Source: an uncultured Eubacteriales bacterium
Lineage (GTDB): Bacteria > Bacillota > Clostridia > Christensenellales > Aristaeellaceae
Length of the DNA stretch: 24,000 bases
Direction of reading: 5' to 3'
Assembly: GCA_902767315.1 (NCBI GenBank)
Contig: CACXHB010000112.1
Location: 1,496-25,495, forward strand
Shown here: piece after piece, positions 4,191 to 19,620 of the stretch
Position numbering within the stretch: position 1 is the first letter of the stretch
Layout: each line of letters starts with the position of its first letter
The notes under the pieces: generated by a model
The model's input: only the letters and a program-made list of their open reading frames with translations
What the model was told of the DNA's origin: nothing
Databases searched by the model: none
Program-made: the position numbers and the translations under genes

Positions 4191-5869
4191 CCCTGTTCCC
4201 TTCCCCGGAAGGCCACGCTCCTGATCTGCACCCGGCCCTCCCGGCCCAGTATCTTCACCGTTTTTTCCGCCCCGGCGCTCAGCGTCATCGCCGGAATCGT
4301 CTCAAATTCATCCTCCCGTGAAATCGCGATGTCTCTTTCCTCCCCGTCGCAGGAAATCCGCAGCCGCCCCTTTCCCCGGGCGGTAATCTCCACCGGGCAT
4401 TCCTCCGTCACCGGATGCACGCTGTAGCAGGCGAATTCCCCCTCCTTCAGCGCCAGCAAAAGCTCCTCCAGCGGGCTTGCCGTGTTGGGCTTGCTGCCCG
4501 GCAGCATGGGCCCGTCCTGCACCTCCACGCCGTCCCGCAGCACCAGTTCCATGCCGTCCTCCGCGCGGAAGCACAGGGGGTTGCCCTCCCAGTTTTCCCC
4601 GTAAAAGCTTTCGCCCCGATGGCCGCCGTCGTAAGCCGCCCCGGGAATCTCCACGCCCTGCCGCCGCTGGCAGTACCGGTGTAGCTCCGCGTCTCCCCGG
4701 CAGTTTTCGAATTTCAGCCGCTCAATCAGCGCGTCGAACAGCGCCTGGGACTGGGCGTAAGTGGGCCGCGCCCCGCCCTGCATGGCGTAATCCAGTATCG
4801 CCTGGAACCCCTCCGGCAGATCGTATTTCACCGCCCCCGCCTCCGCGCCGGCCACCGTCTTCCAACACCACAGATTGAAGCCGATGCCCTCCCGGGCGGC
4901 GATTTCGTAAAATCCGCACATGTCGATGTTGTTGCTCTTGCCCTCGCCGATCCAGACGGGCACGTTCAGCCGCCGGGAAACCTCCAGAAATTTAAACAGG
5001 CTGCGCTTCTCCGGCCGGAAGGAATACATGTGCACGGAAAGGGCCCAGTTGCTGCATTCCGGGTCGAAATTCTTTTTGAACATCCGGGTGTCCGTGGCAA
5101 ACACCGGCCCTTCCAGAAACAGCAGATGGTTTTTGTCGTGCCGGCGAATCCGCCGGACGGCCTCGTCGTAAAAAGCCTCCAGTTCCGGCGTCAGGTGGTG
5201 CCACCGGGGAATGGAAATGGGCTCGTTCAATACGTCGTATCCCCCCACAATCCACCGCTGGCCGTATCGCCGGGCCAGCTCTTCCAATAACATCAGCGCC
5301 CGCTCCCGGCTTTCGGGCTCCAGGAACATGTGGGGCACGTTGTCCAGCCCGTCGTCGCACCAGAGCCCGGACTGTCCCCCCGGCGCGCCGTGGAGATCCA
5401 GTATGGCGTAAATCCGGTATTTTTCGCATGCGTCCAGCACCCGGGTGAGCATTTCAAAGCCCGCCTCGTCAAATTCGGCCTCCGGCTCCTCCGGCAGCAG
5501 CACCCACGCCGTCAGGGGCAGCCGGATGGAATTGTAGCCCAACCGGGCCATTTCCCGAATGTCCGCCTCCGCCAGATGGGCCGCGTGCCACCGGGGCCAG
5601 AATTCCCGGGCGTATTTCGTGCCGCAGGTCTCCCGAATCACCGTCGTCATGGTGCGCCCGGACTGAAACCGTCCCGGCAGCGCCAGTTCCGGACTCATGC
5701 AGCTTCCCATGTATTTTTCGCCAATGCCCACCATGAACCCCTCGGGATTGGTCCAGTTCCCCGCGCCCCAGCCCCGCAGGATGATCTCTTCTCCGTCGCC
5801 GTTGACGATCTTGCGCCCCTGGGCGTGGAGCATGCCCTTCACCCGGCTGTTGTCGTATCTGCTGCTCAT
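4187..5869 (-). CDS. Glycoside hydrolase family 5 (cellulase-family) protein with a C-terminal beta-sandwich-like extension; no signal peptide
   Basis: VNGDGEEIILRGWGAGNWTNPEGFMV, GYNSIRLPL, ILDLHGAPGGQSG, acid/base YDVLNEP and nucleophile region PVWIGEGK are GH5 hallmarks. AAGGAGAAGG RBS upstream. About 130 extra C-terminal residues. Confidence 0.75.
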   Translation of the reverse strand: MSSRYDNSRVKGMLHAQGRKIVNGDGEEIILRGWGAGNWTNPEGFMVGIGEKYMGSCMSPELALPGRFQSGRTMTTVIRETCGTKYAREFWPRWHAAHLAEADIREMARLGYNSIRLPLTAWVLLPEEPEAEFDEAGFEMLTRVLDACEKYRIYAILDLHGAPGGQSGLWCDDGLDNVPHMFLEPESRERALMLLEELARRYGQRWIVGGYDVLNEPISIPRWHHLTPELEAFYDEAVRRIRRHDKNHLLFLEGPVFATDTRMFKKNFDPECSNWALSVHMYSFRPEKRSLFKFLEVSRRLNVPVWIGEGKSNNIDMCGFYEIAAREGIGFNLWCWKTVAGAEAGAVKYDLPEGFQAILDYAMQGGARPTYAQSQALFDALIERLKFENCRGDAELHRYCQRRQGVEIPGAAYDGGHRGESFYGENWEGNPLCFRAEDGMELVLRDGVEVQDGPMLPGSKPNTASPLEELLLALKEGEFACYSVHPVTEECPVEITARGKGRLRISCDGEERDIAISREDEFETIPAMTLSAGAEKTVKILGREGRVQIRSVAFRGREQG

Positions 5870-5893
5870 GGCCCTTCTCCTTTTTGTCGCTTC

Positions 5894-6367
5894 TTATTTT
5901 GCCGCCGCCCGGGCCTTTTTCCGGGCCAGATATCGCTGCTCCGCCGCCTCGTATTCCAACCGCTCCTCGTCGTTTTGCAAAACCAGCCGGGGCGGGCGGA
6001 TGGAACGCTCTTCCTCGTCCAGGGCCACCATCACCAGATACGCCCGGTTGATGCGCTCCCGTTCCCCGTTCTGCCGGTCCACATAGGTTTCCACCTTCAC
6101 CTCAAAGGAGGTGTTGCCCACATACGTCACCTTGCCGATGATCTCCAGAATGTCCCCCAGCTTGGCGGCGGTGAGAAAGTCCAGTTTGTCGATGGCGGCG
6201 GTGGTTACCTCCGTGCCGCAATAACGCCGGCCCGTAATGCCGGCCACCATGTCGATCCACTCCAGCAGCCTGCCGCCGTAGAGCTTGCCCCGGGTGTTGA
6301 GATCCTGATACATCAGCATCCGGGTCTGCCGGGTCAGGGAATCCTGCACCGTGCTGGTCTTTTCCAT
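5894..6367 (-). CDS. Acyl-CoA thioesterase (hotdog fold, YciA/BFIT-like)
   Basis: MLMYQDLNTRGKLYGGRLLEWIDMVAGITGRRYCG...VTTAAIDKLDFLTAAKLGDILEIIGKVTYVGNTSFEVKVE is the typical hotdog acyl-CoA thioester hydrolase pattern. GGAGG RBS; 6-nt gap to recQ. Confidence 0.75.
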   Translation of the reverse strand: MEKTSTVQDSLTRQTRMLMYQDLNTRGKLYGGRLLEWIDMVAGITGRRYCGTEVTTAAIDKLDFLTAAKLGDILEIIGKVTYVGNTSFEVKVETYVDRQNGERERINRAYLVMVALDEEERSIRPPRLVLQNDEERLEYEAAEQRYLARKKARAAAK

Positions 6368-6373
6368 GGGAAC

Positions 6374-8095
6374 CTACCTCCTTTTCCACGTGCGGATGGC
6401 CCGCACGAAGTCCTTTCCGTAGCTTTTCTGTTTCGCCAGTCCCACCCCGGGCACGTCCATCAATTCCTCCAGACTCTCGGGCTTCTGCACGCTCATGGCC
6501 CGCAGGGTGGCGTCGGTAAAGATCACATACGCCGGCACGCTGCGGCTCAGGGCGATTTCCTTTCGCACCGCCCGCAGATGCTCGAACAGCTCCTCGTCCG
6601 CCGGCTCCAGCGCCGGGGCGTTCTTCCGCCGGGCGGGCCGCGCCGCCTCCGGTGTCAGGGTCAGGGTCACGTCTCGGGCCTCTCCGGCGCAATTGCCGCA
6701 TCCGCCGCACCGCCCCGGGGCTTCCTCGCCAAAATAATTCAATATGCTGGCCCGCAGACAGCCCGTCTCCTGGCAATAGTCGATCATGGCCTCCAGCCGC
6801 TTCCGGGCCGTGGCCTGCACCCGCCGCAGCTGTTCCGGGGAAAGCTCCGCTTCCTCACCCATGTGCTGAATGAAATATCGCCGGGTAAAAATGTCCCGCC
6901 GGGAATAAAGCAGTGTGCATTCCGCCGGCTCGCCGTCCCGGCCCGCCCGGCCCGCCTCCTGATAATAGCTTTCCAAATCCCCGGGCATGGCGTAATGAAT
7001 CACAAACCGCACGTCGCTTTTGTCAATGCCCATGCCGAAGGCGTTGGTGGCCACCATCACCCGGCATTTGTCCAGGGCAAAGGCCTCCTGATTTTCCCGG
7101 CGTTCCTGGTCGGAAAGCCCCGCGTGATACCGCGTGGCGGAAATTCCCCGCCCGTTCAGCATTTCGCATACGCTTTCCACCTCCTTGCGGGTGGCGCAGT
7201 ATACAATGCCGCTTTTCCCGGCGTATTCCGCCGCCAGCCGCAAAAGGGTCTCGTCCTTCCGGGCCGGCTCCAATACCCGGAAATATAAATTCGGCCGGTC
7301 AAAACCCGTGACGCATACAAAGGGATTTTCCAGCCCCAGCAGCCGCACAATGTCCTCCCGCACCGCCTGAGTGGCCGTGGCCGTAAAGGCGCATAAGTAG
7401 GGCCTGCGGGGCAGCCGCCGGATGAAATCCGGAATTTCCAGATACCCCGGCCGGAAATCCTGTCCCCATTGGGAAATGCAGTGGGCCTCGTCCACCGCCA
7501 CCAGGCTTGGGGGCTGCTTCTCCATCAGCGAAAGAAACCTCGGGGTGTTCAGCCGCTCCGGGGCCACGTATAATATCCGATATTTCCCCGCCCCGGCGTT
7601 GTCCAGGGCCAGATCCATCTGCCGGGCCGTCAGCGAACTGTTCAGATACGCCGCGCTGACCCCCGCCTGCTTCAGCGCCGCCACCTGATCCTTCATCAGG
7701 GAAATCAGCGGCGAAATCACCACCGCGCATCCCTCTAACATCAGCGCCGGCACCTGATAGCACAGGGATTTCCCCGCTCCCGTGGGCATCACCCCCAGGG
7801 TGTCCCGCCCGGAAAGGATGGAATCGATCAGCGTCTCCTGCCCGTCCCGGAAATCGTCGTATCCGAAGTATCGCTTCAATACCTCGTGCTTTCCCATTCC
7901 CACCGGGCTGGGGGGCGGGGCCTCCCTTTGAGGCGCGGTTCCCCTTTCCCATTCCGCCGCGGGGCATAAAAGGGCCTCTTCCCCCTCCTCCGGGCGATAT
8001 ACCGCCCAGATTCCGCCGTCCGAAGCCCGGGCCAGGGTCAGAAGCGTCACCTCCCGGCCCCATAGCCGGTATTTCCCCGGGGCATATCCGCGCAT
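6374..8095 (-). CDS. recQ: ATP-dependent DNA helicase RecQ (helicase core, Zn/RQC and HRDC domains), with a ~66-aa N-terminal extension if the first ATG is used
   Basis: LKRYFGYDDFRDGQETLIDSILSGRDTLGVMPTGAGKSLCYQVPAL, DEAHCISQWGQDFRPGY, cysteine cluster CRASILNYFGEE..CGGCGNC, and a C-terminal HRDC-like LFEHLRAVRKEIALSRSVPAYVIFTDATLRAMS. An alternative start at 7897 (MGKHEVLKRYFGYDDF) would give a canonical N-terminus. Confidence 0.9.
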   Translation of the reverse strand: MRGYAPGKYRLWGREVTLLTLARASDGGIWAVYRPEEGEEALLCPAAEWERGTAPQREAPPPSPVGMGKHEVLKRYFGYDDFRDGQETLIDSILSGRDTLGVMPTGAGKSLCYQVPALMLEGCAVVISPLISLMKDQVAALKQAGVSAAYLNSSLTARQMDLALDNAGAGKYRILYVAPERLNTPRFLSLMEKQPPSLVAVDEAHCISQWGQDFRPGYLEIPDFIRRLPRRPYLCAFTATATQAVREDIVRLLGLENPFVCVTGFDRPNLYFRVLEPARKDETLLRLAAEYAGKSGIVYCATRKEVESVCEMLNGRGISATRYHAGLSDQERRENQEAFALDKCRVMVATNAFGMGIDKSDVRFVIHYAMPGDLESYYQEAGRAGRDGEPAECTLLYSRRDIFTRRYFIQHMGEEAELSPEQLRRVQATARKRLEAMIDYCQETGCLRASILNYFGEEAPGRCGGCGNCAGEARDVTLTLTPEAARPARRKNAPALEPADEELFEHLRAVRKEIALSRSVPAYVIFTDATLRAMSVQKPESLEELMDVPGVGLAKQKSYGKDFVRAIRTWKRR

Positions 8096-8212: not shown

Positions 8213-10711
8213 TTATGCCGTTTCGATGCCCGCGGCCTTCTGCAGCTTCAGCCGCGCGATGGCCTCTTCCCGCATCCTGTATTTCAGTATCTTGCCCGCC
8301 GCGTTCATGGGGAACCCCGTCACAAAGTCGATGTACCGGGGCACCTTGTGCCGGGCCATGTGCTCCCGCACATATTGCTTCATTTCGTCCGCGGTCATGC
8401 TCTCCCCTTCCTTCAGCACCACGCAGGCCATGATCTCCTCGCCGTACTGCTCGTCCGGCACGCCGATCACCTGCACGTCGCTGACCTTGGGGTGGGTGTA
8501 AATGAATTCCTCAATCTCCTTGGGATAAATGTTCTCGCCGCCCCGGATAATCATGTCCTTCAGCCGGCCGGTAATGCGGAAATTGCCGTCCTCGGTCTTG
8601 CAGGCCAGATCGCCCGTGTGCAGCCAGCCGTCCTTGTCGATGGCCCGCACGGTTTCGTCGGGCATCTTGTAATATCCCTTCATCAGGTTGTATCCCCGGG
8701 CCACGAATTCGCCGATTTCCCCGGTGGGCAGCTCCCTGCCGGTGTCCGGGTCGATAATCCGGCATTCGATTTCCGGCATGGCCCGGCCCACGGTGCCCAC
8801 CCGCACCTCCAGCGGGTCGTCCGTGGAGGACATGGTGCATCCCGGGGAAGCCTCCGTCTGGCCGTATACAATCACGATTTCCGACATGTGCATCTTGTTC
8901 ACCACGTCCCGCATTTTGGAAATGGGGCAGGGAGAACCGGCCATGATGCCCGTGCGCATGCAGGAAAAATCCGTCTTTTCAAAGTCCGGATGCTCCAATA
9001 GCGCCACAAACATGGTGGGCACGCCGTGGAAGCAGGTGATGTGCTCCTGATGAATGCAGGCCAGGGCGGGCTTGGCGGAAAAATAGGGCAGGGGCAGTAT
9101 GGTAGCCCCGTGGGTCATGGCCGCGGTCATGGCCAGCACCATACCAAAGCAGTGGAACATGGGCACCTGAATCATCATCCGGTCCGCGGTGGAAAGATCC
9201 ATCCGGTCGCCGATGCATTTGCCGTTGTTGACCACGTTGTAATGGGTCAGCATCACGCCCTTGGGAAATCCCGTGGTGCCGGAAGTGTACTGCATGTTGC
9301 ATACGTCGTGGGGCGAAACCTGCGCCGCCATGCGCAATACTTCCTGATGGGGCACCGTCCTGCCCCGCTCCAGGGCCTCTTCCCAGGTCACGGCCCCCGC
9401 CTGGCGGAAGCCCACGGTGATGATGTTCCGCAAAAAGGGCAGCCGGTGGCTGTGCAGGAACTGCCCGGGTCGGGTCTCCGCCAATTCCGGACAAAGCTCG
9501 TTCATAATGGCCTGATAATCGCTGTCCTTGTTGGATTTCTCCATAATCAGCGTGTGGGTGTCCGATTGCTTCAGCAGATATTCCGCCTCGTGAATCTTGT
9601 AAGCGGTGTTCATGGTCACCAGCACCGCGCCGATTTTGGTGGTGGCCCAGAAGGCGATGAACCACTGGGGCAGGTTGGTGGCCCAGATGGTCACGTGGCT
9701 GCCCGCCTTCACCCCCAGGGCGATCAGCGCCCGGGCGAAGTCGTCCACGTCGTCCCGGAACTGGGCGTAGGTACGGGTGTAGTTGAGGGTGGTGTATTTA
9801 ATGGCCTGCTGGTCGGGGAATTCCTCCACCATCCGGTCCAGCACCTTGGAAAACGTGCAGTCGATCAGGGCGTCCTTGGTCCATACGTACCGGCCCGTGT
9901 GCCGCCGGTTGAAGTGCAGCGGCTTTTTCAGGGTGCGGGGGCTCTCGAACCGGTTCATGTAATTCACAAAATGGGGGAAGATGATCTCCCTGTCCTGCAA
10001 ATCCTCCATCCACTGGGGTTTCCACACCAGGGAAATGAACCCGTCGTAATTAATGGAAGCCAGCGCGTCCATCATGGCGGGAATGGGCAGCGTGCCCTCG
10101 CCGATAAGGTTGTATACTCCCTCGTCGTCGGAATCCCGCAATTGTACGTGGCGCACATACGCCCCCAGGTTTTTGATGGTCACCGCCGGGGTCTCCCCGT
10201 GGTCCCGCACCGTATGGTGCAAATCCCACGTGGCCGCCAGCTCGTCGCAGGCAAAGTAGTTCATCAGATCCCGCAGCCGCTCGGTGTCCGCGTAAATTCC
10301 CGCGGTTTTGATCAGCACCGTCACCCGGTTCTCCGCCGCCCGGGGCAGAATCCGCCGCAGGCTCTCCCGCACCGCGTCCTCGTTTTCCCCGGATGCGTAT
10401 ACCCCGATGTAGGGCACCCGCAAATCCGCCGCCAGCCGGGTCAATTGCTCCATGGCCCGCACCGCGTCCTCTACCTCGCCGGACAGGTCAATCGAACTGT
10501 CCAGACAGGGAATCTCCAGCTTTTTCTCCGCCAGCAGCCGCACGGTGGAGGAAATGCAATATTGATGAAAGGGCCCGCTTTTGTCGAAAAGGGCCTTCTG
10601 CATGTGGGCGTTGTAGATTTCCACGCCGGAAAAGCGCATTTCTCCGGCCATGCGAATCCATTCTTCCCAGGGCGCGCCCTCCCAGCCCCGGGTGGAAAAG
10701 GAGAGCTTCAT
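8213..10711 (-). CDS. Fusion protein: N-terminal xylose-isomerase-like TIM barrel (sugar phosphate isomerase/epimerase, AP-endonuclease-2 fold, ~270 aa) plus C-terminal AMP-dependent acyl-CoA synthetase (FadD/ACSF2-like, ~560 aa)
   Basis: The N-terminus MKLSFSTRGWEGAPWEEWIRMAGEMRFSGVEIYN...VTVLIKT...WDLHHT...HVQLRDSD...GEGTLPIPAMMDALASINYDGFISLVWKP fits the TIM-barrel family pattern. The C-terminus carries MQYTSGTTGFPKGVMLTHYNV, YGQTEASP, GWLHTGDLACKTEDGNFRITGRLKDMIIRGGENIYPKEIE and AGKILK (adenylate-forming A3/A5/A8/A10 motifs). There is one uninterrupted ORF. The start overlaps the upstream stop (ATGA). Confidence 0.85.
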   Translation of the reverse strand: MKLSFSTRGWEGAPWEEWIRMAGEMRFSGVEIYNAHMQKALFDKSGPFHQYCISSTVRLLAEKKLEIPCLDSSIDLSGEVEDAVRAMEQLTRLAADLRVPYIGVYASGENEDAVRESLRRILPRAAENRVTVLIKTAGIYADTERLRDLMNYFACDELAATWDLHHTVRDHGETPAVTIKNLGAYVRHVQLRDSDDEGVYNLIGEGTLPIPAMMDALASINYDGFISLVWKPQWMEDLQDREIIFPHFVNYMNRFESPRTLKKPLHFNRRHTGRYVWTKDALIDCTFSKVLDRMVEEFPDQQAIKYTTLNYTRTYAQFRDDVDDFARALIALGVKAGSHVTIWATNLPQWFIAFWATTKIGAVLVTMNTAYKIHEAEYLLKQSDTHTLIMEKSNKDSDYQAIMNELCPELAETRPGQFLHSHRLPFLRNIITVGFRQAGAVTWEEALERGRTVPHQEVLRMAAQVSPHDVCNMQYTSGTTGFPKGVMLTHYNVVNNGKCIGDRMDLSTADRMMIQVPMFHCFGMVLAMTAAMTHGATILPLPYFSAKPALACIHQEHITCFHGVPTMFVALLEHPDFEKTDFSCMRTGIMAGSPCPISKMRDVVNKMHMSEIVIVYGQTEASPGCTMSSTDDPLEVRVGTVGRAMPEIECRIIDPDTGRELPTGEIGEFVARGYNLMKGYYKMPDETVRAIDKDGWLHTGDLACKTEDGNFRITGRLKDMIIRGGENIYPKEIEEFIYTHPKVSDVQVIGVPDEQYGEEIMACVVLKEGESMTADEMKQYVREHMARHKVPRYIDFVTGFPMNAAGKILKYRMREEAIARLKLQKAAGIETA

Positions 10712-12132
10712 GCTTCGGCCTCCTCATATACGATTTTGTTCAGCGCGCTGACGTAGGCCCGGATGCTGGCCCCCACCACGTCCGTGGAAATGCCCCGCCC
10801 GGAATACAGCTTGCCCCCGGAGCGCAGCCGCACGATGGTTTCGCCCATGGCCTCCCGGCCCTGGGTCACGGCCTGAATCTGGAAATCGTCCAGTTCGTAG
10901 TGGTGCCCCACAATCTGCTCCACCGCCAGGAACGCCGCGTCGATGGGCCCGTCTCCCAGACACACTCCCTCCAGCTTCGTCTCGCCCTTGTAAAGCACCA
11001 GATGAGCGCTGGCGGAAACGGTGTTGCCGCAGGTCACCAGATACGTGTCCACCCGGTAAGTGGGGGGCACCTGCATGGCCGCGGAGGCCACGATGGTGTC
11101 CAACTCCTTGGCGCTGAGGCTCTCCTTCCGGGCGGCGATGCGCTGGAAGGCCTCGTATACCCGGGCCACGTCCTCTTCGGACAGGTCGTAGCCGATCTTC
11201 TTCACCGCGTCGGCCACGGCGGCGCGGTCGTCGTGGGCGGAAAGCACCACGTCCGCGTGGGCCGCGGCGGACTGCACCCCGCTGTCAAAGGGGGATTTCG
11301 CGTCCCGGCTGGTGCGGCACATCCATTCGATCTGGTCCGTCACCCGCTTCAGTTCCGTGTTGTAAAGGTCGCTGCCCACGCCCATGGCCACGCCCCGGCT
11401 CTGCATCACCGCGGAAAAGTGGTTGATGCTGGTCACGTTGCCTTTGCAGGAAATGACCTTGATCTCCCGGGCCCCGCAGCGCACCGCCGCCGTGGCGCAG
11501 GCCGTGGCCATGTTCATCTCGTCCGAACACATGACCCCCAGCCGCACGCTGTCCATTTCCGGCACCGCGGCCTTGATCTCTTCCAGAAATTGCGTAAATT
11601 CGTCCGGGAACATCAGTCCTGCAGTGTCGCACAGGGTAATCACCGTGGCGCCGGCGGAAATGGCCGTGCGGATGGCCCGGCAGAGGAACTCCCTTTCGCT
11701 GCGGCAGGCATCGTCCGCAATGAATTCCACCTCGCCGCATTTTTCCCGGCATTGGGCGATCAGCCCCGCGATGGTCTCCAGGGTCTTTTCCGGCTTCTTG
11801 TGCCAGAAATATTCCATCTGGGTGGGGCTCATGGGGGCCTCCACCTGCAGCCGGGGATTTACCGCGTTTTTCAGCGCTTCGTAAGTGTCCTCCACGCTGC
11901 CCTCCTCCAGGGTCACGGGCGCGGCGATGGTGGCGTGCTTCACCGCCATGGCGATGGATTTAATCAAAAGGCTGTCGATTTTCCGGCTGCGGATGGGGCT
12001 GACCTCGATGACGCTGACGTTCAGCCGGTCCAGCAGCTTCGCCAGCTCGATTTTCTCCTTAAAGCTCAGGGAAAGCTCCGGGGCCTGGTCGGCAACCTTC
12101 ATGGTAATATCGCTTACGCCAATGTTCTGCAT
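10708..12132 (-). CDS. 2-isopropylmalate/citramalate synthase homologue with a degenerate catalytic site and a conserved C-terminal LeuA allosteric/dimerisation domain (probable pseudoenzyme or sensor)
   Basis: The HMGL-like barrel is alignable to LeuA, but DTTLRDGEQ is replaced by DITMKVADQ, HxH(N/D)D by MCSDE, and GIGERAGN by CKGNVTSI. DTAGL (for DTVGY) is kept. The C-terminus GDGPIDAAFLAVEQIVG...FQIQAVTQGREAMGETIVRLRSGGKLYSGRGISTDVVGASIRAYVSALNKI is a well-conserved LeuA regulatory domain. AGGAGG RBS. Confidence 0.75.
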   Translation of the reverse strand: MQNIGVSDITMKVADQAPELSLSFKEKIELAKLLDRLNVSVIEVSPIRSRKIDSLLIKSIAMAVKHATIAAPVTLEEGSVEDTYEALKNAVNPRLQVEAPMSPTQMEYFWHKKPEKTLETIAGLIAQCREKCGEVEFIADDACRSEREFLCRAIRTAISAGATVITLCDTAGLMFPDEFTQFLEEIKAAVPEMDSVRLGVMCSDEMNMATACATAAVRCGAREIKVISCKGNVTSINHFSAVMQSRGVAMGVGSDLYNTELKRVTDQIEWMCRTSRDAKSPFDSGVQSAAAHADVVLSAHDDRAAVADAVKKIGYDLSEEDVARVYEAFQRIAARKESLSAKELDTIVASAAMQVPPTYRVDTYLVTCGNTVSASAHLVLYKGETKLEGVCLGDGPIDAAFLAVEQIVGHHYELDDFQIQAVTQGREAMGETIVRLRSGGKLYSGRGISTDVVGASIRAYVSALNKIVYEEAEA

Positions 12133-12175: not shown

Positions 12176-13243
12176 TCAAATGCGCAGGGTCCACCCGAAG
12201 GGATCCTCGATCTTGCCCCACTGAATGCCGGTAAGGGTGTCGTACAGCATGTGGGTCACTTCACCGATCTCGCCGCCGTTTACGATGTACGTCCTGTCTT
12301 TGTAAGCCAGCTTGCCGATGGGCGAAATCACCGCGGCGGTGCCGCAGCCCCAGGCCTCTTCCAGGGTGCCGTTTTCCATGGCGGCGGCCAGTTCGTCCAC
12401 GCTCAGCAGGCGCTCTACTACATTGTAGCCCTTGCCGCGCAAAACGTCAATGCAGCTTTTCCGGGTAACGCCGGGCAAAATGGAGCCCGTCAGCGCCGGG
12501 GTCACCACTTCGCCGGAAATTTTGAACATCACGTTCATGGCGCCCACTTCTTCAATGTACTTGCGCTCCACGCCGTCCAGCCACAAAACCTGGCTGTATC
12601 CCTGCCGTTCGGCCCGCTCGCCGGCCCGGTTGGAGGCCGCGTAATTGCCGCCGCACTTGGCGTATCCCGTGCCGCCCCGCACCGCACGCACGTCCTGATC
12701 CTCGATCATGATGCCCACGGGGTTGATGCCTTCCTTATAATAGCTGCCCACCGGGGAAAGAATCACGCAGAAGGCGGCGTGCTCCACCGCGTGCACCCCC
12801 AGCGTCTCGTCCGTTCCGAAGGTGAAGGGCCGAATGTACAGGCTGGTGCCTTCCAGATGGGGCACCCAGTCCTCCTCCATCTTCACCAGCGTGGTCACCA
12901 CCTGCAAAAAGTCCTCCTCCGGCAGCTGGGGCAGACACAGCCGCTCCGCGGAATTCATCATTCGCCGGGCGTTTTCCCAGGGGCGGAACAGCTGCACGCC
13001 GCCGTCCTTTCTGCGGTAAGCCTTCAGTCCTTCGAAAATCTCCGCGCCGTAGTGAAGACAGGTGGAGGCCGGATGCATGGAGAAGTTGCCGAAGGGGACG
13101 ATCCGGGCGTCGTGCCAGCCCTTTTCCCTGTCCCAGTCCACCATCGCCATGTAATCGGTAAAAATCTTTCCAAAGCCCAGCTTGGTCTCGTCGGCGGGCT
13201 TTTCCTTCAGCTGCGCGCATTTTTCCACACGGATGTCCAACAT
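12176..13243 (-). CDS. ilvE: Branched-chain amino acid aminotransferase (fold-type IV PLP enzyme, ~355-aa type)
   Basis: KLGFGKIFTDYM, HYGAEIFEGLKAYR, GTGYAKCGGNYAAS, LTGSILPGVTR and GCGTAAVISPI motifs. I chose the start at 13243 (MLDIRVEK) because GGGAGGAG lies 7 nt upstream. The track ORF begins 24 nt earlier, at 13267. Confidence 0.9.
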   Translation of the reverse strand: MLDIRVEKCAQLKEKPADETKLGFGKIFTDYMAMVDWDREKGWHDARIVPFGNFSMHPASTCLHYGAEIFEGLKAYRRKDGGVQLFRPWENARRMMNSAERLCLPQLPEEDFLQVVTTLVKMEEDWVPHLEGTSLYIRPFTFGTDETLGVHAVEHAAFCVILSPVGSYYKEGINPVGIMIEDQDVRAVRGGTGYAKCGGNYAASNRAGERAERQGYSQVLWLDGVERKYIEEVGAMNVMFKISGEVVTPALTGSILPGVTRKSCIDVLRGKGYNVVERLLSVDELAAAMENGTLEEAWGCGTAAVISPIGKLAYKDRTYIVNGGEIGEVTHMLYDTLTGIQWGKIEDPFGWTLRI

Positions 13244-13280
13244 TTCTTTTCTCCTCCCTGCGTTCAAATCCCTGGGTTCT

Positions 13281-13814
13281 TTATTCGAAGTTCCGGCCCA
13301 TTTCCAGGGCCTTCCGGTTGAAATCGTACATCTCCGGGTGCTTCACGGAAACCACCTTTTTCAGCGCCGCCTCCACGTTTTCCGGCTCGTACTGCCCCAG
13401 TCGGGCCAGCATCGCCCCGGAAAGAATCATGTTGGCCAGGGTGGTCACCCCGTTTTCCCCGGCCATGCGGGTGGCGGGCACATATACCGCGTGCACGTCC
13501 TGCCGGCGCACCTTCCGCTCAATCAGCGTGGAATCCACAAAAATCCATCCGCCGGGGTTCACCGCGTCCTCGTATTTGTCCAGCGACGGCAGATTCATCA
13601 CCATCAAAACGTCCGGATGATCCACAATGGGGGAAGAAACCGGCTCGTCCCCGATGACCACCGAACAGTTGGCGGTGCCGCCCCGCATTTCCGGGCCGTA
13701 GGAGGGCAGCCAGGTCACCTGCTTTCCCTCCATCATGCCCTTGTTCACCAGAAACTTGCCCGCGAAGAGGATGCCCTGTCCGCCGAATCCGGCGATGAGA
13801 AAACGAGTGGTCAT
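13281..13814 (-). CDS. 2-oxoacid:ferredoxin oxidoreductase, gamma subunit
   Basis: [22 protein letters not shown]...[20 protein letters not shown] is the typical gamma-subunit signature. The start ATG at 13812-13814 overlaps the beta stop (ATGA). The longer track ORF start at 13889 lies inside the beta gene. Confidence 0.85.
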
Positions 13815-14566
13815 TTTGCCTCCTCCTTTGCGCTTCTGTCCTTGTAAACTCCCAGGGGATAATAGGGAATCATCTTGTCCTGCACCCATTCCAGCGCCTT
13901 TTCCGGCGTCATGCCCCAGTTGGTGGGACAGGCGGACAACACCTCCACCAGAGAAAATCCCTTCCCCGCCAGCTGGTTTTCAAATGCCTTTTTGATGGCC
14001 TTTTTCGCGGCCTTCACGTTTTTGACGTTGTTCACCGCCACCCGTTCCAGATATTCCGGCCCGTCCAGGGTGGAAAGCATTTCGCAGATCTTCACCGGAT
14101 ACCCGCAGGCCTTCACGTCCCTTCCGTAGGGCGAGGTCTGGGTCACCTGCCCGGGCAGGGAGGTGGGGGCCATCTGCCCGCCGGTCATGCCGTAAATGGC
14201 GTTGTTGATGAAAATAATGGTGATGTTCTCGTTCCGGGCCGCGGCGTGCACCGTCTCCGCCGTGCCGATGGAGGCCAGGTCTCCGTCTCCCTGATAGGTA
14301 AACACCACGTTGTGCTCCGGGTCGGCCCGCTTCAGTCCCGTGGCCACCGCGGGGGCCCGTCCGTGGGCCGCCTCCACCATGTCGCAGGCGAAATAATCAT
14401 ACGCCATCACCGCGCAGCCCACCGGCGCCACGCCGATGGTGCGTCCCTCGATGCCCAGTTCGTCGATCACTTCCGCCACCAGCCGGTGCACAATGCCGTG
14501 GGTGCACCCGGGGCAGTAATGCAGCGGTACGTCCAAAAGAGCGTGGGGTCGTTCAAATACCATCAT
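13811..14566 (-). CDS. 2-oxoacid:ferredoxin oxidoreductase, beta (TPP-binding) subunit
   Basis: [19 protein letters not shown], and the TPP motif [14 protein letters not shown]...[14 protein letters not shown]. The start overlaps the alpha stop. Confidence 0.9.
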
Positions 14567-15627
14567 TTTTCGGCGCCTCCCTCCATGTTTTCGATTCCTC
14601 TGAGCACCTCTTCCGGGGAAGGAATGATGCCGCCCGCCCGATGAATCAGCTTCACCGGCCGTTTGCAGGAAATGGCCAGCCGCACGTCGTCAATCATCTG
14701 GCCCATGTTCAGTTCCACCGTGGCAAAGGATACGCACTTCTCCGCTGCGGCCGCCAGGGCCTTTTCCGGGAAGGGCCACAGGGTAATGGGCCGAATCATG
14801 CCCGCCCGAATGCCCTTTTTCCGGGCCTCGTCAATGGCCGCCTTGGTCACCCGCGCCGCAATGCCGAAGGCCACCAGGCAGTATTCCGCGTCCTCCATGC
14901 GGTATTCCTCCCACATGGCCTCCTTTTCCTGAATCCGCCCGTACCGCTGGAACCGCTCAAAGTTCTGCCGCTCCAGCTCCGCCGGGGCCAGGGAAAGGGA
15001 ATTGACGATGTTGTGCTTGCGGCCCATGCCCGTGCCGGTAACGGCCCAGGACTTGTCGAATTCCTTTTTCTCGATTTTCGGAATTTCCACCGGCTCCATC
15101 ATCTGGCCCATGGTGCCGTCCGCCAGTATCATGGCCGTCATCCGGTATTCGTCCGCCAGGTCAAAGCCCTTCACCGTCAAATCGGCCATTTCCTGCACGC
15201 TGGCCGGGGCCAGCACGATCATCCGGAAATCCCCGTGTCCGCCGCCCTTGGTGGCCTGGAAGTAGTCCGATTGAGAGGGCTGAATGCCCCCCAGCCCCGG
15301 GCCGCCCCGCTGCACGTTCACCACCAGCGCCGGCAGATCCGCCCCCGCCAGATAGGAAAGCCCCTCGCTCTTCAGGGAAATTCCCGGGCTGGAGGAAGAG
15401 GTCATCACCCGATGCCCGGTGGAAGAGACGCCGTAAACCATGTTGATGGCGGCGATTTCACTTTCCGCCTGCAGAAACACGCCGCCGATTTTGGGCATGC
15501 GTTTGGCCATGTAGGCCGCCACTTCCGTCTGCGGCGTAATGGGATATCCGAAATAATGCCGGCATCCGGCCATGATGGCCGCCTCGGCAATGGCTTCGTT
15601 GCCCTTCATCAGTACCTTGTCCGCCAT
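14563..15627 (-). CDS. vorB: 2-oxoacid:ferredoxin oxidoreductase, alpha subunit (VorB-like; substrate not assignable from sequence alone)
   Basis: [36 protein letters not shown]...[15 protein letters not shown]... is the typical four-subunit OFOR alpha N-terminus. The vorB label rests on resemblance to proteins I recall being annotated that way, plus the BCAT context. Confidence 0.8.
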
Positions 15628-15645: not shown

Positions 15646-15852
15646 TTATCGCTCCACCGTAATCACGCAATCGGGGCACATGGTGGCGCAGAAGGCGCAG
15701 CCCACGCAGGCCTCGGGGTTCGTGATCTCGGCGGGATGGTGTCCTTTTTGATTGATGCGGTCCCGTGCGATGCGAATGAGCTTTTTGGGGCACGCGCCTA
15801 CGCACAGTCCGCAGCCCTTACAGCGGTCCACCTGAAACGTGATCTTTGCCAT
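15646..15852 (-). CDS. 2x[4Fe-4S] ferredoxin (OFOR delta subunit), 68 aa
   Basis: Two CxxCxxCxxxCP motifs: CKGCGLCVGACP and CVGCAFCATMCP. It lies immediately upstream of the alpha subunit. Confidence 0.85.
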   Translation of the reverse strand: MAKITFQVDRCKGCGLCVGACPKKLIRIARDRINQKGHHPAEITNPEACVGCAFCATMCPDCVITVER

Positions 15853-16566: not shown

Positions 16567-16587
16567 GCCGCCCCTCCTTCTGCCGGT

Positions 16588-16885
16588 ATGAAAAAACACA
16601 CTCGTCTCAAAGAAATGAGATTCTTTGAGACGAGTGTGATCAAAACACCCGCGGTACCACTCAAATTGCGGTCTGTGAAAAAACCGCCCCTCGTCGGGCT
16701 CTGACAAGCCCTATGCCTTGACGCAGCAGTCACGGGAAGGTTCTACTGGCCCCCTCGGGCGTTCTTCCTTCCGGCTCGGGAAATTCAGATGTCCGCCCTG
16801 CGCCGCGTTTCGTGGCTCGCACCCACCGCCACTTCTCTGAAAACGGGCCTTCGCCGGGGACATTTTCCCTCATTGCCTTTGTTGT
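16588..16885 (-). promoter_or_regulatory. T-box riboswitch leader 1 (tRNA-sensing transcription attenuator)
   Basis: Read on the minus strand: K-turn AAUGA...GAG; AG bulge CAGAGAA; distal loop GGUGGGUGCGA; AGUAG; T-box AAUUUGAGUGGUACCGCGGG (plus coordinates 16648-16662). UUUGAG can pair with CUCAAA of the terminator 5' arm, forming the antiterminator. The terminator is CACACUCGUCUCAAAGA-loop-UCUUUGAGACGAGUGUG followed by UUUUUU (16591-16638). Confidence 0.9.
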
Positions 16886-16890
16886 GGCCT

Positions 16891-16919
16891 ATTCTATCTC
16901 ATTTCCTTTGCGCTGTCAA
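16891..16919 (-). promoter_or_regulatory. Sigma-70 promoter of T-box leader 1 (-35 TTGACA, 17 nt, -10 TAGAAT)
   Basis: The minus strand reads TTGACAgcgcaaaggaaatgagaTAGAAT. The -35 is a perfect consensus match, the spacer is 17 nt, and the -10 matches TATAAT at 5 of 6 positions. Confidence 0.8.
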
Positions 16920-16992: not shown

Positions 16993-19254
16993 TTACAGCT
17001 TGTTGCGCTGAATCTTGCCGCTGACGGTCTTGGGCAATTCGTCCTTGAACACCACGATGCGGGGATATTTGTAAGGCGCGGTGTGCTCCTTGACGTAGGT
17101 CTGAATCTCCTTTTTCAATTCCTCCGTGCCCTGGGTGCCCTTTGTCAGCACGATGCTGGCCTTCACCACCTGGCCGCGCACCTCGTCCGGCGCGGCGGAT
17201 ACGCCGCATTCCAGCACGTAGGGCAGTTCCATAATGACGCTCTCGATTTCGAAGGGCCCAATCCGGTATCCGGAGGATTTGATCACGTCGTCCACCCGGC
17301 CCACGTACCAGTAGAAGCCGTCCTCGTCCATCCAGGCCACGTCGCCGGTGTGATACCATCCGTCGTGCCATACCTCCCGGGTCTTCTCCTCGTCCCGGTA
17401 ATATCCCTTAAACAGCCCGCAGGGTACCTTTTCGTCCGTGCGGATGCAGATTTCGCCGGAAACGCCCGCGCCCACGATTTCTCCGTCGGGCCCCAGCAGA
17501 TGAATATCGTACAGGGGCACCGGCTTGCCCATGGCCCCCACCTTGTGGGAATCTCCCATGAGGTTGGCGATGGAAAGGGTGGTCTCCGTCTGGCCGAAGC
17601 CCTCCATGATCCGCAGCCCCGTCAGCTTCTCGAATTGCCGGAATACCTCCGGGTTCATGGCCTCGCCGGCGGTGGTGGCCCGCTGGACGGAGGAGAAGTC
17701 GTACTGGCTCAGGTCCTGCTTGATCATCATCCGATACATGGTCGGCGGCGCGCAGAAGGTGGTGATGTGATACTTGGCGAACAGGGGCAGAATGTCCGCC
17801 GCGTCGAACCGGTCGAAGTCGTAGGTGAATACTCCGCCCTCGCACAGCCATTGCCCGTACAGCTTGCCCCACAGGGCCTTGCCCCATCCGGTGTCGGAAA
17901 TGGTGAAGTGCAGCCCGTCCCGGTCCACCCCGTGCCACCAGCGGGCGGTGATGTAATGCCCCAGGGGATATTTGTACGAATGGGCCGCGATCTTGGGATA
18001 CCCGGTGGTGCCGCTGGTGAAGAACATCAGCATTGTGTCGTCGCCGCAGGGGGCGTCCTCCGGCCGGTCGTATTTCCGGGTGAACAGTACGCTCTCCCCG
18101 TCGTAATCGTGCCAGCCCTCCCTGCTGCCGCCCACGGCGATTTTCACCTTCAGTTCGGGACAGCTCGCCGCCGCCAGATCCACCTGATGGGCGGTGTCCC
18201 CGTCGCAGGTGCACAATATGGCGCTGACCCCCGCGGACTGGAACCGGTATTCGAAGTCGTGGGCCTGCAGCTGATTGGTGGCGGGAATGGCGATGGCCCC
18301 CAGCTTGTGCAGCCCCAGAATCGCCGGCCAGAATTCCCAGTGCCGCTTCAGCACCAGCATCACCCGGTCGCCCTTTTTCACGCCCAGGGATTTAAAGTAA
18401 TTGGCCGCCTGGGCGGAAAGCCGCTTCATGTCCTTGAAGGTGAATTTCCGCTCCTGCTTGTGCTTGTCCAGATGCAGCATGGCCAGCTTGTCCGGGTATT
18501 TGTCCGCCAGCGCGTCCACCACGTCGAAGGCGAAGTTGAACTGATCTTCCCCGGTAAACTCGATGCGCTTCAGGGTTCCGTCCTCGCCTACCCCCGCGTG
18601 CACAAACTTTTCGCACACCAGATCCTCGGCCTTGCTGGCCATCACCAGGCTGTCCCGAATCTCCGCCTCGGCCACTTCCTCCCCCGGCAGCACCACCGCC
18701 AGGAACACGCAGTCCTGCCCGTCCACGGCGATCATCCCGTGGGGCGTGGAGGAATCATAGAAAATGCTGTCTCCTTCGTTCAGCAGCTCCACATGGTCGC
18801 CCACCTGCACCTTCAGCGTGCCGGAGAAAATCAGGTCGAATTCCTGGCCGGAATGGGTGGTCATGTGAATAGGCCGGTGCTGCAATTCCGGCAGATAGTC
18901 GTATTTTACCCAATAGGGCTCGGCCATCTTCCCCCGGAACATGGGGGCCAGGTGCTGAATCTGAATGCCCCGCTCCCGGGCGGTGGTCACGCCCCGGCCC
19001 TTGCGGGTCACGGTGTAACTGGAAAGGTGCGCGCTGTATCCCTCCAACAGGTCGGTAATCTCAATGCCGAAGGCCAGGGCGCATTTGTGAATGAACGTAA
19101 AGGGCAGATCCACCGCGCCGGTTTCATATGCCGCGTACGTCTCCGGGCTCACCTGGGTCTTTTCCGCCATCTCGGCCTCGGTCAGCCCCATAATTTCGCG
19201 CATCTCCCGAATGCGCAGCGCGATTTCCATCAGCGGATTTTGAGAAGTTTGCAT
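16993..19254 (-). CDS. Fusion protein: XRE-family HTH + cupin domain (~190 aa) plus medium-chain-type AMP-dependent acyl-CoA synthetase (ACSM/MacS-like)
   Basis: N-terminus: MEIALRIREMREIMGLTEAEMAEKTQVSPETYAAYETG (HTH_3-like), then HSGQEFDLIFSGTLKVQVGDHVELLNEGDSIFYDSSTPHGM (cupin). C-terminus: FNFAFDVVDALADKYPDKLAMLH, MLMFFTSGTTGYPK, GFGQTET, GWYHTGDVAWMDEDGFYWYVGRVDDVIKSSGYRIGPFEIES and SGKIQR. The start at 19254 (MQTSQNPL) follows GGGAGGG. The track start at 19362 lies inside the T-box. Confidence 0.85.
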   Translation of the reverse strand: MQTSQNPLMEIALRIREMREIMGLTEAEMAEKTQVSPETYAAYETGAVDLPFTFIHKCALAFGIEITDLLEGYSAHLSSYTVTRKGRGVTTARERGIQIQHLAPMFRGKMAEPYWVKYDYLPELQHRPIHMTTHSGQEFDLIFSGTLKVQVGDHVELLNEGDSIFYDSSTPHGMIAVDGQDCVFLAVVLPGEEVAEAEIRDSLVMASKAEDLVCEKFVHAGVGEDGTLKRIEFTGEDQFNFAFDVVDALADKYPDKLAMLHLDKHKQERKFTFKDMKRLSAQAANYFKSLGVKKGDRVMLVLKRHWEFWPAILGLHKLGAIAIPATNQLQAHDFEYRFQSAGVSAILCTCDGDTAHQVDLAAASCPELKVKIAVGGSREGWHDYDGESVLFTRKYDRPEDAPCGDDTMLMFFTSGTTGYPKIAAHSYKYPLGHYITARWWHGVDRDGLHFTISDTGWGKALWGKLYGQWLCEGGVFTYDFDRFDAADILPLFAKYHITTFCAPPTMYRMMIKQDLSQYDFSSVQRATTAGEAMNPEVFRQFEKLTGLRIMEGFGQTETTLSIANLMGDSHKVGAMGKPVPLYDIHLLGPDGEIVGAGVSGEICIRTDEKVPCGLFKGYYRDEEKTREVWHDGWYHTGDVAWMDEDGFYWYVGRVDDVIKSSGYRIGPFEIESVIMELPYVLECGVSAAPDEVRGQVVKASIVLTKGTQGTEELKKEIQTYVKEHTAPYKYPRIVVFKDELPKTVSGKIQRNKL

Positions 19255-19297
19255 GTCTGATTTCCCTCCCTGTTTTTTTGAACCTTGTTTTGCGGTA

Positions 19298-19586
19298 TGA
19301 AAAAAACCCGTCCCAAAGCGTTTTGCTTTGAGACGGGTGAAAACATTCTCCCGCGGTACCACTCAAATTGCGGTCTATAAAAAACCGCCCCTCGTCGGGC
19401 TCCAACAAGCCCTATGCCTTGACGCAGCAATCACGTAAGTCCCTACTCGGTTCCCCTTTGAGGCCTTCAACTCGGAAGTGATGGGTCTGATGGATTTCGA
19501 TCCGCCGGTTCACACCAACCACCGGCTCTCTGCAGCACGATCTCCGACCGCCTTCGTCATCGTCTTTGATGTCGTATTCGGTTGTA
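19298..19586 (-). promoter_or_regulatory. T-box riboswitch leader 2
   Basis: Read on the minus strand: K-turn GAUGAC-GAAG...CUUC-CGAG; AG bulge CAGAGAG; distal loop GGUUGGUGUGAA; AGUAGGG; T-box AAUUUGAGUGGUACCGCGGG (plus 19350-19364). The terminator is ACCCGUCUCAAAGC-aaaac-GCUUUGGGACGGGU followed by UUUUUUU (19300-19338). The best specifier guess is AUC followed by A, just 5' of the CUUC lower-stem strand. Confidence 0.9.
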
Positions 19587-19591
19587 AATAT

Positions 19592-19620
19592 ATCTTAGCA
19601 CCCGCCGCCGGTTCTGTCAA
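19592..19620 (-). promoter_or_regulatory. Sigma-70 promoter of T-box leader 2 (-35 TTGACA, 17 nt, -10 TAAGAT)
   Basis: The minus strand reads TTGACAgaaccggcggcgggtgcTAAGAT, with a perfect -35 and a 17-nt spacer. Confidence 0.75.

Follow-up and report, generated by a model that had tools for sequence, protein, structure and literature searches.

We identified a gene for a LeuA-derived pseudoenzyme in a 24,000-nucleotide (nt) stretch of DNA from an uncultured Eubacteriales bacterium. This stretch is referred to below as the window, and all coordinates are positions within it. The encoded protein descends from isopropylmalate synthase (IPMS; LeuA), lacks the residues that define that enzyme, and is a new functional variant in the LeuA/DRE-TIM family, a pseudoenzyme and not a member of the IPMS enzyme family. 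That catalysis has been lost in this LeuA-like protein is well supported by the sequence comparisons described here, and its gene belongs, again with good support, to a leucine T-box regulon. The gene overlaps a downstream gene encoding a xylose-isomerase-like TIM barrel fused to an AMP-forming acyl-CoA synthetase (TIM::synthetase). We propose, giving the idea about an even chance of being correct, that the LeuA-like protein is the leucine-sensing partner of the isovalerate-branch ligase in a module that would convert branched short-chain acids to amino acids.

Catalytic residues, fold, and constraint in the LeuA-like family

The original prediction, a by-eye comparison with LeuA, held that the catalytic residues had been lost, and profile and structural comparisons agreed. 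In a HMMER alignment to Listeria IPMS (3ewb, E = 5.6e-41), DITMKVADQ lies over DTTLRDGEQ and MCSD over HCHD, in the register read by eye, with K12 and V13 at the Arg-Asp positions and M201-C-S203 at the HxH metal motif. The same alignment bore out the reported alteration of GIGERAGN, which is replaced by a shorter, unrelated string. The FAHxSGIHQDG region, described as unrecognizable, is affected by a deletion of ~28 residues relative to genuine LeuAs, which removes the F-x-H-E-S-G-I-H-Q-D-G...Y-E segment of subdomain I. Results from Pfam, NCBIfam, phmmer searches against PDB, Foldseek, and a MAFFT alignment of 114 sequences (106 family members taken from clusters at 50% identity plus 8 LeuA-type sequences of ~500 amino acids [aa]) were concordant, indicating that the by-eye register was sound and ruling out a shifted one.

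The same losses are found in all 106 aligned family members and so reflect neither chance nor a local lesion. At the Arg position of DTTLRDGEQ, the family has R in 34 sequences, K in 27, C in 17, and other residues in the rest; the metal-binding Asp position is variable or a gap, and the β3 His position is Q, N, R, or another residue. The first HxH position, at the end of β7, also varies (E in 24, Q in 14, S in 11, and others), and Ser predominates at the second (59 of 106). The catalytic Glu, E218 of Mycobacterium tuberculosis LeuA, corresponds to D in the window protein and, across the 106 sequences, to E (25), L (23), I (13), V (11), and others; the subdomain I His of HxSGIHQDG, H379 in M. 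tuberculosis, falls in the deleted segment. Across the family, each class of residue on which IPMS chemistry depends is either absent or variable. The positions that replace the metal-binding and catalytic residues of LeuA are themselves unconserved; since the replacements were not re-fixed, this argues against a new catalytic set at those positions. The roles of these residues in IPMS catalysis are partly backed by published work (PMC9860122, PMC10464499), and R80K, R80A, and E218A are tabulated in a review among the substitutions that destroy the activity of M. tuberculosis IPMS (PMC10464499). IPMS activity of the LeuA-like protein is predicted to be absent.

Two Pfam domains were recognized in the protein. 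HMGL-like (PF00682) aligned with aa 7 to 226 (116 bits) and LeuA_dimer (PF08502) with aa 340 to 467 (99 bits), the latter spanning positions 3 to 130 of a 131-position model. The protein scored below the cutoff of every NCBIfam model for LeuA, CimA, and homocitrate synthase; the best was NF002086 (307.7 bits against a cutoff of 532), and TIGR00973 gave 290 bits against 598.7. Because the LeuA model scored 307.7 bits and the CimA models 61.6 bits, we conclude that the protein descends from LeuA and not from CimA. The claim that the C-terminal ~130 aa form a well-preserved LeuA domain was upheld by the nearly complete PF08502 match and by a profile of this domain, which matched the LiCMS regulatory domain (3f6g, 2.4e-9) and M. 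tuberculosis LeuA (1sr9/3fig) and placed GDGPIDAAF over G531-N-G-P-L-A-A-F-V of the latter. A single-sequence search of PDB with the C-terminal domain returned nothing useful. A PF08502 domain taken from CimA can act on its own as a sensor of isoleucine (PMC13381585).

An AlphaFold2 model built from the family alignment had a mean predicted local distance difference test (pLDDT) score of 82.8; in the linker, pLDDT was <50 at aa 274 to 290, and helices were present at aa 302 to 335. Superposition on LeuA structures, suggested as a check alongside the original prediction, showed that the fold is retained. Foldseek superposed the barrel at ~1.9 Å on the IPMS catalytic domains 3ewb, 3eeg, and 3rmj (root mean square deviation, 1.8 to 2.0 Å; template modeling score normalized to the target, 0.82 to 0.91), with ~31% identity to Listeria IPMS, and the whole chain matched M. 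tuberculosis LeuA (1sr9, 3fig).

A word-indexed search returned, among the matches listed, at least 120 relatives of ~470 aa and 59 to 99% identity, all from uncultured Clostridia and all named either "hypothetical" or [quoted passage not shown] An exhaustive search of 50%-identity cluster representatives yielded well over 100 further full-length clusters, down to ~31% identity; LeuA-type proteins of ~500 aa turned up only beyond that point, and 4 of the 8 examined carry the full catalytic set. In a scan of one genome per species, relatives were found in at least 587 GTDB species, mostly metagenome-assembled genomes (MAGs) of Oscillospiraceae/Faecousia from ruminant, human, and other guts. The size and conservation of the family rule out a private lesion or a pseudogene.

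Constraint in this family is inverted relative to real LeuA, in that the regulatory domain is more conserved than the barrel. Barrel and regulatory domain had p-distances of 0.67 and 0.43, respectively, in the family, compared with 0.57 and 0.62 in the 8 LeuA-type sequences of ~500 aa (4 of them with the full catalytic set), and the barrel is the fastest-evolving part of the LeuA-like protein (mean distance, 0.69). Conservation of ≥88% is reached at 17 of the 265 barrel positions, 5 of the 75 linker positions, and 34 of the 130 positions of the regulatory domain; most of the last carry the genuine LeuA residue, including those of GxGPxDA and STD...AY..A.N. The residues of the leucine pocket in M. 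tuberculosis LeuA (L535, V551, Y554, A558, and A565) correspond in this family to I, L, F, A, and A, which are conservative changes. The barrel also has near-invariant residues that are absent from LeuA: F24 and K113 (106 of 106), E107 (105), and Y108 and P100 (103 each).

Separately from this family, we noted four LeuA-like proteins (P0245, P0252, P0266, and P0270) of ~500 to 516 aa that combine a full-length linker with motifs that are partly degenerate (DTTLCDGEQ or DSTLCEGER, for example, and an altered HESGIHQDG). They may represent independent catalytic decay or a changed specificity.

Pairing with the TIM::synthetase and leucine T-box leaders

The LeuA-like gene lies on the minus strand, a point that the original prediction did not give. 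It begins with ATG, 8 nt downstream of an AGGAGG ribosome-binding site, and ends in an ATGA stop/start overlap with the TIM::synthetase gene. This translational coupling had been noted in the original prediction; the overlap was read in the window and recurs as a −4 overlap in 51 of 77 related loci, with a −1 overlap in another 11. A GAGGAG within the codons of the C-terminal YEEAEA is the ribosome-binding site of the downstream gene. Wherever the sequence continues past the LeuA-like gene (73 of 73 loci), a TIM::synthetase lies ≤60 nt downstream, and the pairing is retained in members whose identity to the query is as low as 36% and 33%, and also in loci where the TIM and synthetase parts are called individually. 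This constant adjacency, usually with the ATGA overlap, strengthens the case for the synthetase as the partner that had been suggested. Two seemingly stand-alone TIM genes proved to be fusions that had been split or frameshifted, with LeuA-like, TIM, and synthetase in the usual order, and a search with the TIM domain alone returned mostly contig-end fragments, which told little about architectures.

The highly conserved C-terminal tail of the LeuA-like protein, ...VYEEAEA (10712 to 10729, minus strand), is encoded by ...GAGGAGGCCGAAGCA; since GAGGAGGCCGAAGCA doubles as a ribosome-binding site, conservation of the tail may be partly at the nucleotide level. The pair was also seen in two loci (L081 and L084) from MAGs labeled Salinivirgaceae and Bacteroidales, at 49 to 50% identity and with no 2-ketoisovalerate-type ferredoxin oxidoreductase (VOR) cluster nearby; its presence in Bacteroidota-labeled bins could reflect horizontal transfer or misbinning.

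The TIM::synthetase is PRK12583-like (708 bits), and its adenylation motifs (YTSGTTGFPKG, YGQTE, GRLKD, and AAGK) are intact. The TIM domain was modeled with a pLDDT of 91 as a generic xylose-isomerase-like fold, and a fold search with it retrieved only generic relatives at 12 to 18% identity (AsbF, UlaE, and psicose epimerases) and thus no functional clue. The pattern W-D-x-H-H / H-V-H-x-R-D-S / S-L-E-W, putatively metal binding, is kept in about 110 homologues. The window copy, alone among these, carries H190Q and E229V (the His of HVHLRDS and the Glu of SLEW). The position of the first usual Glu ligand of the fold reads K-T in all of them. Distance matrices for the LeuA-like barrel and the TIM domain were correlated (r = 0.83; partial r, 0.64 given the synthetase domain) more strongly than those for the TIM domain and its own fused synthetase (0.735). 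The correlation is suggestive of coevolution between barrel and TIM domain, not decisive.

The original prediction had linked the LeuA-like protein to branched-chain amino acids, and T-box leaders narrow this link to leucine. T-box leaders are read through when the cognate tRNA is uncharged. We searched with the Rfam T-box family RF00230 (gathering score, 93). In the window, Rfam at gathering thresholds found nothing, and both T-box leaders were seen only in E-value mode. Each comes with a promoter-like site and a strong terminator hairpin. One, ahead of a helix-turn-helix (HTH)-cupin-synthetase gene, spans 19569 to 19326 (90.7 bits, E = 1e-19) and has the specifier AUC (Ile). The other (63.7 bits, E ~1e-12) stands ahead of the operon that encodes a CbiA/ParA-like protein, a ferredoxin, VOR, a branched-chain amino acid aminotransferase (BCAT), the LeuA-like protein, and the TIM::synthetase. 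The specifier of this operon leader is most likely CUG (Leu), although the Infernal alignment is ambiguous there. We favor CUG because it is kept in all four loci with the window arrangement (the window, L001, L005, and L014), because its spacing from the S-turn matches that of the Ile codon in the other window T-box, and because it is unpaired in the minimum-free-energy fold (CUGAA loop). A strict specifier rule (codon, N, 4-bp helix, N, GAG) gives GAA or GUA in leaders of the window type; we set it aside in favor of CUG as a matter of judgment.

Related loci were clearer. In all 9 loci scanned, the LeuA-like gene is directly preceded by a T-box that reaches or exceeds the gathering score. 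In two of these (L003 and L037), the T-box ends 50 to 65 nt before the LeuA-like start and has, by Infernal alignment, the specifiers CUG and CUC, and the HTH-cupin-synthetase genes have T-boxes of their own with AUC (Ile) and GUC or GUA (Val); in seven further loci from diverse lineages, the T-box is in the same place. In a motif-based census, 67 of 87 loci had a T-box core ≤220 nt ahead of the LeuA-like gene, and the specifier was CUG, CUC, or CUA in 66 of the 67 leaders (50 assigned automatically and 16 by eye; one was unreadable). Automatic pairing joined Leu specifiers with LeuA-like genes 51 times and Ile and Val specifiers with ligases resembling MbcS 33 and 9 times, respectively. About one-fifth of loci have no T-box ahead of the LeuA-like gene. 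Among T-box-less loci, L016 (2205 to 2390), L018 (9801 to 10004), L020, L036, and L048 have the LeuA-like gene ~200 nt after an aminotransferase gene, and the gap contains promoter-like sequence of the TTGACA type as well as, immediately before the ribosome-binding site, a GC-rich hairpin with a U-run. The hairpin in this sublineage could be a different attenuator.

Candidate role in a leucine branch and competing explanations

A ligase, a 2-ketoacid:ferredoxin oxidoreductase, and an aminotransferase are all present in the window operon, and this cluster recurs in most related loci. The presence of the oxidoreductase and the aminotransferase beside three T-box-controlled ligases points to a route from acid to acyl-CoA to 2-keto acid to amino acid. 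Since T-boxes for Leu, Ile, and Val are inducible by starvation and the three ligases are of the AMP-forming type, we infer that the pathway runs in the biosynthetic direction. The LeuA-like/TIM::synthetase pair would be the leucine branch, and its ligase is therefore presumably an isovalerate-CoA ligase. It is established that isovalerate is carboxylated to leucine in rumen bacteria (PMC7356843). MbcS of Staphylococcus aureus activates 2-methylbutyrate and isobutyrate and is poor with isovalerate (PMC10026030), which fits the use of a third, different ligase for leucine.

In the proposed mechanism, isovalerate would be activated to isovaleryl-CoA by the TIM::synthetase, reductively carboxylated to 2-ketoisocaproate by the adjacent ferredoxin-dependent oxidoreductase, and converted to leucine by the adjacent aminotransferase. 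Control would operate at two levels. At the level of transcription, uncharged tRNA-Leu would turn on the operon through the T-box leader; at the level of protein, leucine bound to the LeuA-type domain would shut down the ATP-consuming first step. The barrel would no longer bind the catalytic metal or perform the Claisen condensation, the putative leucine-binding regulatory domain is held under strong constraint, and the LeuA-like protein would be made together with the TIM::synthetase and most likely bind it. Docking of a noncatalytic, leucine-sensing subunit on the ligase, perhaps barrel to TIM barrel, would be the most economical mechanism and would complement the slower T-box control. Leucine binding, a physical complex, inhibition of the ligase, and specificity for isovalerate are all predictions from sequence, and the boldest form of the proposal, in which the pseudoenzyme is an obligate leucine-sensing subunit of an isovalerate-CoA ligase, falls a little short of an even chance.

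Several observations weigh against this proposal. The T-box already provides leucine control, so a second sensor is not logically required, and 5 of 31 well-flanked loci have no VOR, BCAT, or sister ligase within ~10 kb. The mirror-tree correlation may reflect two fast-evolving domains that share a history. The conserved D-H-H...H...E pattern suggests that the TIM domain has a function of its own, and F24, P100, E107, Y108, and K113 of the barrel could mark a new site for a ligand or for catalysis and not an interface.

The family-specific barrel residues and the TIM pattern would also be expected if the barrel had taken on a new job, binding a small molecule such as isovaleryl-CoA, 2-ketoisocaproate, or isovalerate, with LeuA_dimer serving mainly to dimerize; in a variant of this idea, the barrel and the fused TIM domain would together form a new active site for the leucine branch, either metal independent or dependent on a TIM metal. 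Such a job would account for the LeuA-shared residues retained at the C-terminal face of the barrel (D8, T10, S102, D141, R144, and D169) and for the presence of two extra barrels only in the leucine branch. We nevertheless consider it unlikely: the barrel evolves fastest and did not re-fix the positions that replaced the LeuA metal and catalytic residues, a ligase, VOR, and an aminotransferase suffice to convert isovalerate to leucine and are all present, and the window TIM domain has lost two residues of its pattern in an otherwise intact operon. Somewhat less probable again is a purely structural subunit (a scaffold, assembly factor, obligate activator, or VOR tether) that does not sense amino acids and dimerizes through its C-terminal domain. 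Obligate adjacency and overlapping genes do suggest a stoichiometric complex, the Pfam label of the domain covers both allostery and dimerization, and leucine control is already available from the T-box; however, the ligand-response motifs (the GxGPxDA loop and STD...AY..A.N) are more conserved than in real LeuA, and dimerization alone is not expected to hold 26% of positions at ≥88% across sequences 33 to 69% identical.

The original prediction of a noncatalytic subunit that senses branched-chain amino acids stands as regards the noncatalytic barrel and the regulatory domain, which is the most constrained part; its alternative partner, the oxidoreductase, fared less well. A target in VOR or the aminotransferase would fit the window, where the LeuA-like gene directly follows both in one operon. 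Among 31 well-flanked loci, however, only 23 had VOR and 14 had BCAT within ~10 kb, compared with the TIM::synthetase adjacent in every locus that could be read, and VOR and BCAT commonly form a separate Val-T-box transcription unit on the opposite strand. We therefore regard this target as quite improbable. Even less credit is due to the reading of the gene as an ordinary isopropylmalate, citramalate, or homocitrate synthase with misread motifs, or as a decaying pseudogene. The Pfam HMGL-like and LeuA_dimer matches are significant, and one member is labeled "2-isopropylmalate synthase" in some sources, but hidden Markov model, profile, and structure comparisons agree on the register and the missing residues, and intact open reading frames (ORFs) of constant length, with a strongly conserved C-terminal domain and conserved synteny, occur in at least 587 species.

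Gene neighborhood, known systems, and implications

The minus-strand order in the window is HTH_19-Cupin_2-synthetase, CbiA/ParA-like, ferredoxin, VOR alpha, beta, and gamma, BCAT, LeuA-like, and TIM::synthetase (Table 1). The window oxidoreductase passed the VorB-type model NF005507 with 540.7 bits (cutoff, 399). There is a 79-nt overlap between the VOR gamma ORF and the beta gene, and homologues of gamma are 177 aa long; the true gamma start is probably later than the ORF start. The longest-ORF starts of the CbiA-like gene (15904 to 16707) and the HTH-cupin-synthetase gene (16993 to 19362) run into the T-box leaders. The synthetase part of the HTH-cupin fusion best matches MbcS (NF047394, 416.7 bits, below the cutoff of 850). 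Most related loci have two such fusions, with an XRE-type HTH (for example, at 4354 to 6642 and 6980 to 9247 in L003), usually with an Ile T-box ahead of one and a Val T-box ahead of the other. The HTH-cupin module may be a sensor or bind DNA. Two genes downstream of the synthetase, past a RecQ helicase gene, lies a gene for a weakly YciA-like acyl-CoA thioesterase of the 4HBT fold (5894 to 6367, minus strand); since a thioesterase occurs near the cluster elsewhere only in L066, it is probably unrelated.

Table 1. Features of the LeuA-like locus, with positions in the window
Feature	Position	Strand	Evidence or remarks
LeuA-derived pseudoenzyme, 474 aa	10708..12132	minus	ORF and translation, Pfam, NCBIfam, AlphaFold2, Foldseek
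Degenerate DRE-TIM barrel, aa 1-265	11338..12132	minus	DITMKVADQ, MCS, replaced GIGERAGN region
Shortened linker, aa 266-340	11113..11337	minus	Subdomain I HxSGIHQDG motif deleted, subdomain II helices retained
LeuA allosteric/dimerization domain, aa 340-467	10732..11115	minus	GDGPIDAAF and G-x-G-x-STD...AY..ALNK motifs
ATGA stop/start overlap, LeuA-like/TIM::synthetase	10708..10711	minus	Sequence GCATGAAG (...GAA GCA TGA / ATG AAG CTC)
Xylose-isomerase-like TIM barrel::AMP-forming acyl-CoA synthetase	8213..10711	minus	Pfam AP_endonuc_2, AMP-binding, AMP-binding_C
TIM part, aa 1-270	9902..10711	minus	
Synthetase part	8213..9901	minus	
Branched-chain amino acid aminotransferase (IlvE type II)	12176..13267	minus	NF009897, 479.8 bits, above cutoff of 307
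2-Ketoisovalerate-type ferredoxin oxidoreductase (VOR)	13281..15627	minus	Pfam POR_N/PFOR_II, TPP_enzyme_C, POR
VOR alpha	14563..15627	minus	
VOR beta	13811..14566	minus	
VOR gamma	13281..13889	minus	
2x[4Fe-4S] ferredoxin, 68 aa (delta subunit)	15646..15852	minus	
CbiA/ParA-like P-loop protein, 220 aa	15904..16566	minus	True start ATG at 16566; homologues 220-234 aa
Leader of the LeuA-like operon	16597..16919	minus	Promoter-like 16919-16891, T-box-like 16882-16623, terminator hairpin 16638-16597
HTH_19 + Cupin_2 + acyl-CoA synthetase fusion	16993..19254	minus	Pfam; true start ATG at 19254
Promoter-like site + T-box leader + terminator	19306..19620	minus	Ahead of the HTH-cupin-synthetase gene

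Short-form LeuA (TIGR00973/NF002086; 3ewb, 3rmj, and 1sr9/3fig) shares its regulatory-domain signature with the LeuA-like protein, and genuine leuA genes, for example in Geobacter, can also have a Leu T-box upstream (PMC2700814). Unlike LeuA, the LeuA-like protein has no Arg-Asp motif, HxH, catalytic Glu, or subdomain I HxSGIHQDG, and its gene is paired with an acyl-CoA synthetase and not with leuBCD. The regulatory domain of CimA (LiCMS, 3f6g/3f6h) belongs to the same PF08502 and is the best structural-database match of the C-terminal profile, but the LeuA-like protein scores higher with LeuA models and its gene is under Leu, not Ile, T-boxes. The two sister ligases are MbcS-like, and their Ile and Val T-boxes fit the preference of MbcS for 2-methylbutyrate and isobutyrate; the ligase beside the LeuA-like protein is of another lineage. 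MbcS itself feeds membrane fatty acid primers and has no HTH-cupin, TIM, or LeuA-like accessory.

The proposed system has parallels in two known regulators, of which HisZ is the closer in logic. HisZ is described in PMC9734150 as the regulatory subunit of the short-form ATP phosphoribosyltransferase HisG(S) of histidine biosynthesis and is a catalytically dead paralogue of histidyl-tRNA synthetase; like the LeuA-like protein, it is a dead paralogue from the metabolism of the same amino acid and is encoded together with its catalytic partner. Two traits of the HisZ type are found here, a conserved paralogue without catalytic residues and conserved coencoding with a catalytic partner. HisZ mediates end-product inhibition of the first ATP-consuming step, a role that by analogy is only proposed for the LeuA-like protein. 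The folds are unrelated and the pathways differ, and the partner here is an acyl-CoA synthetase with an extra TIM barrel. IlvH and IlvN, the small subunits of acetohydroxyacid synthase, are likewise separate, coencoded polypeptides that give branched-chain amino acid feedback to a catalytic partner, and IlvH is reported as a Val sensor (PMC13381585); they differ in having an ACT fold, in not being derived from a pathway enzyme, and in having a thiamine diphosphate enzyme as their partner.

Full-text literature searches found no prior description of a dead IPMS, of genes for the reductive carboxylation, or of a T-box combined with isovalerate, and the searched literature assigns neither a gene set nor regulation to the route from branched acids to amino acids. 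That anaerobes of the rumen and gut make leucine, isoleucine, and valine out of isovalerate, 2-methylbutyrate, and isobutyrate has been recognized for decades, and branched short-chain acids are fed to dairy cattle for that reason. The locus described here is a complete candidate for this route, with three amino-acid-specific T-box ligases and a shared oxidoreductase and aminotransferase, and the candidate gene set occurs in hundreds of uncultured Oscillospiraceae species. Annotating LeuA-like genes of this family as isopropylmalate synthase would mislead the reconstruction of auxotrophies from metagenomes. If the proposal is correct, the LeuA-like protein would be a new kind of pseudoenzyme, in which the catalytic half has been gutted and the sensor half redeployed on an enzyme of another route to the same end product, and it would be the first example in which an end product feeds back on an acyl-CoA synthetase by way of a dead paralogue of the canonical pathway's initial enzyme. 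The locus would then supply the long-sought genes with which rumen and gut Firmicutes assimilate branched volatile fatty acids into amino acids, together with a circuit that controls them at two levels.

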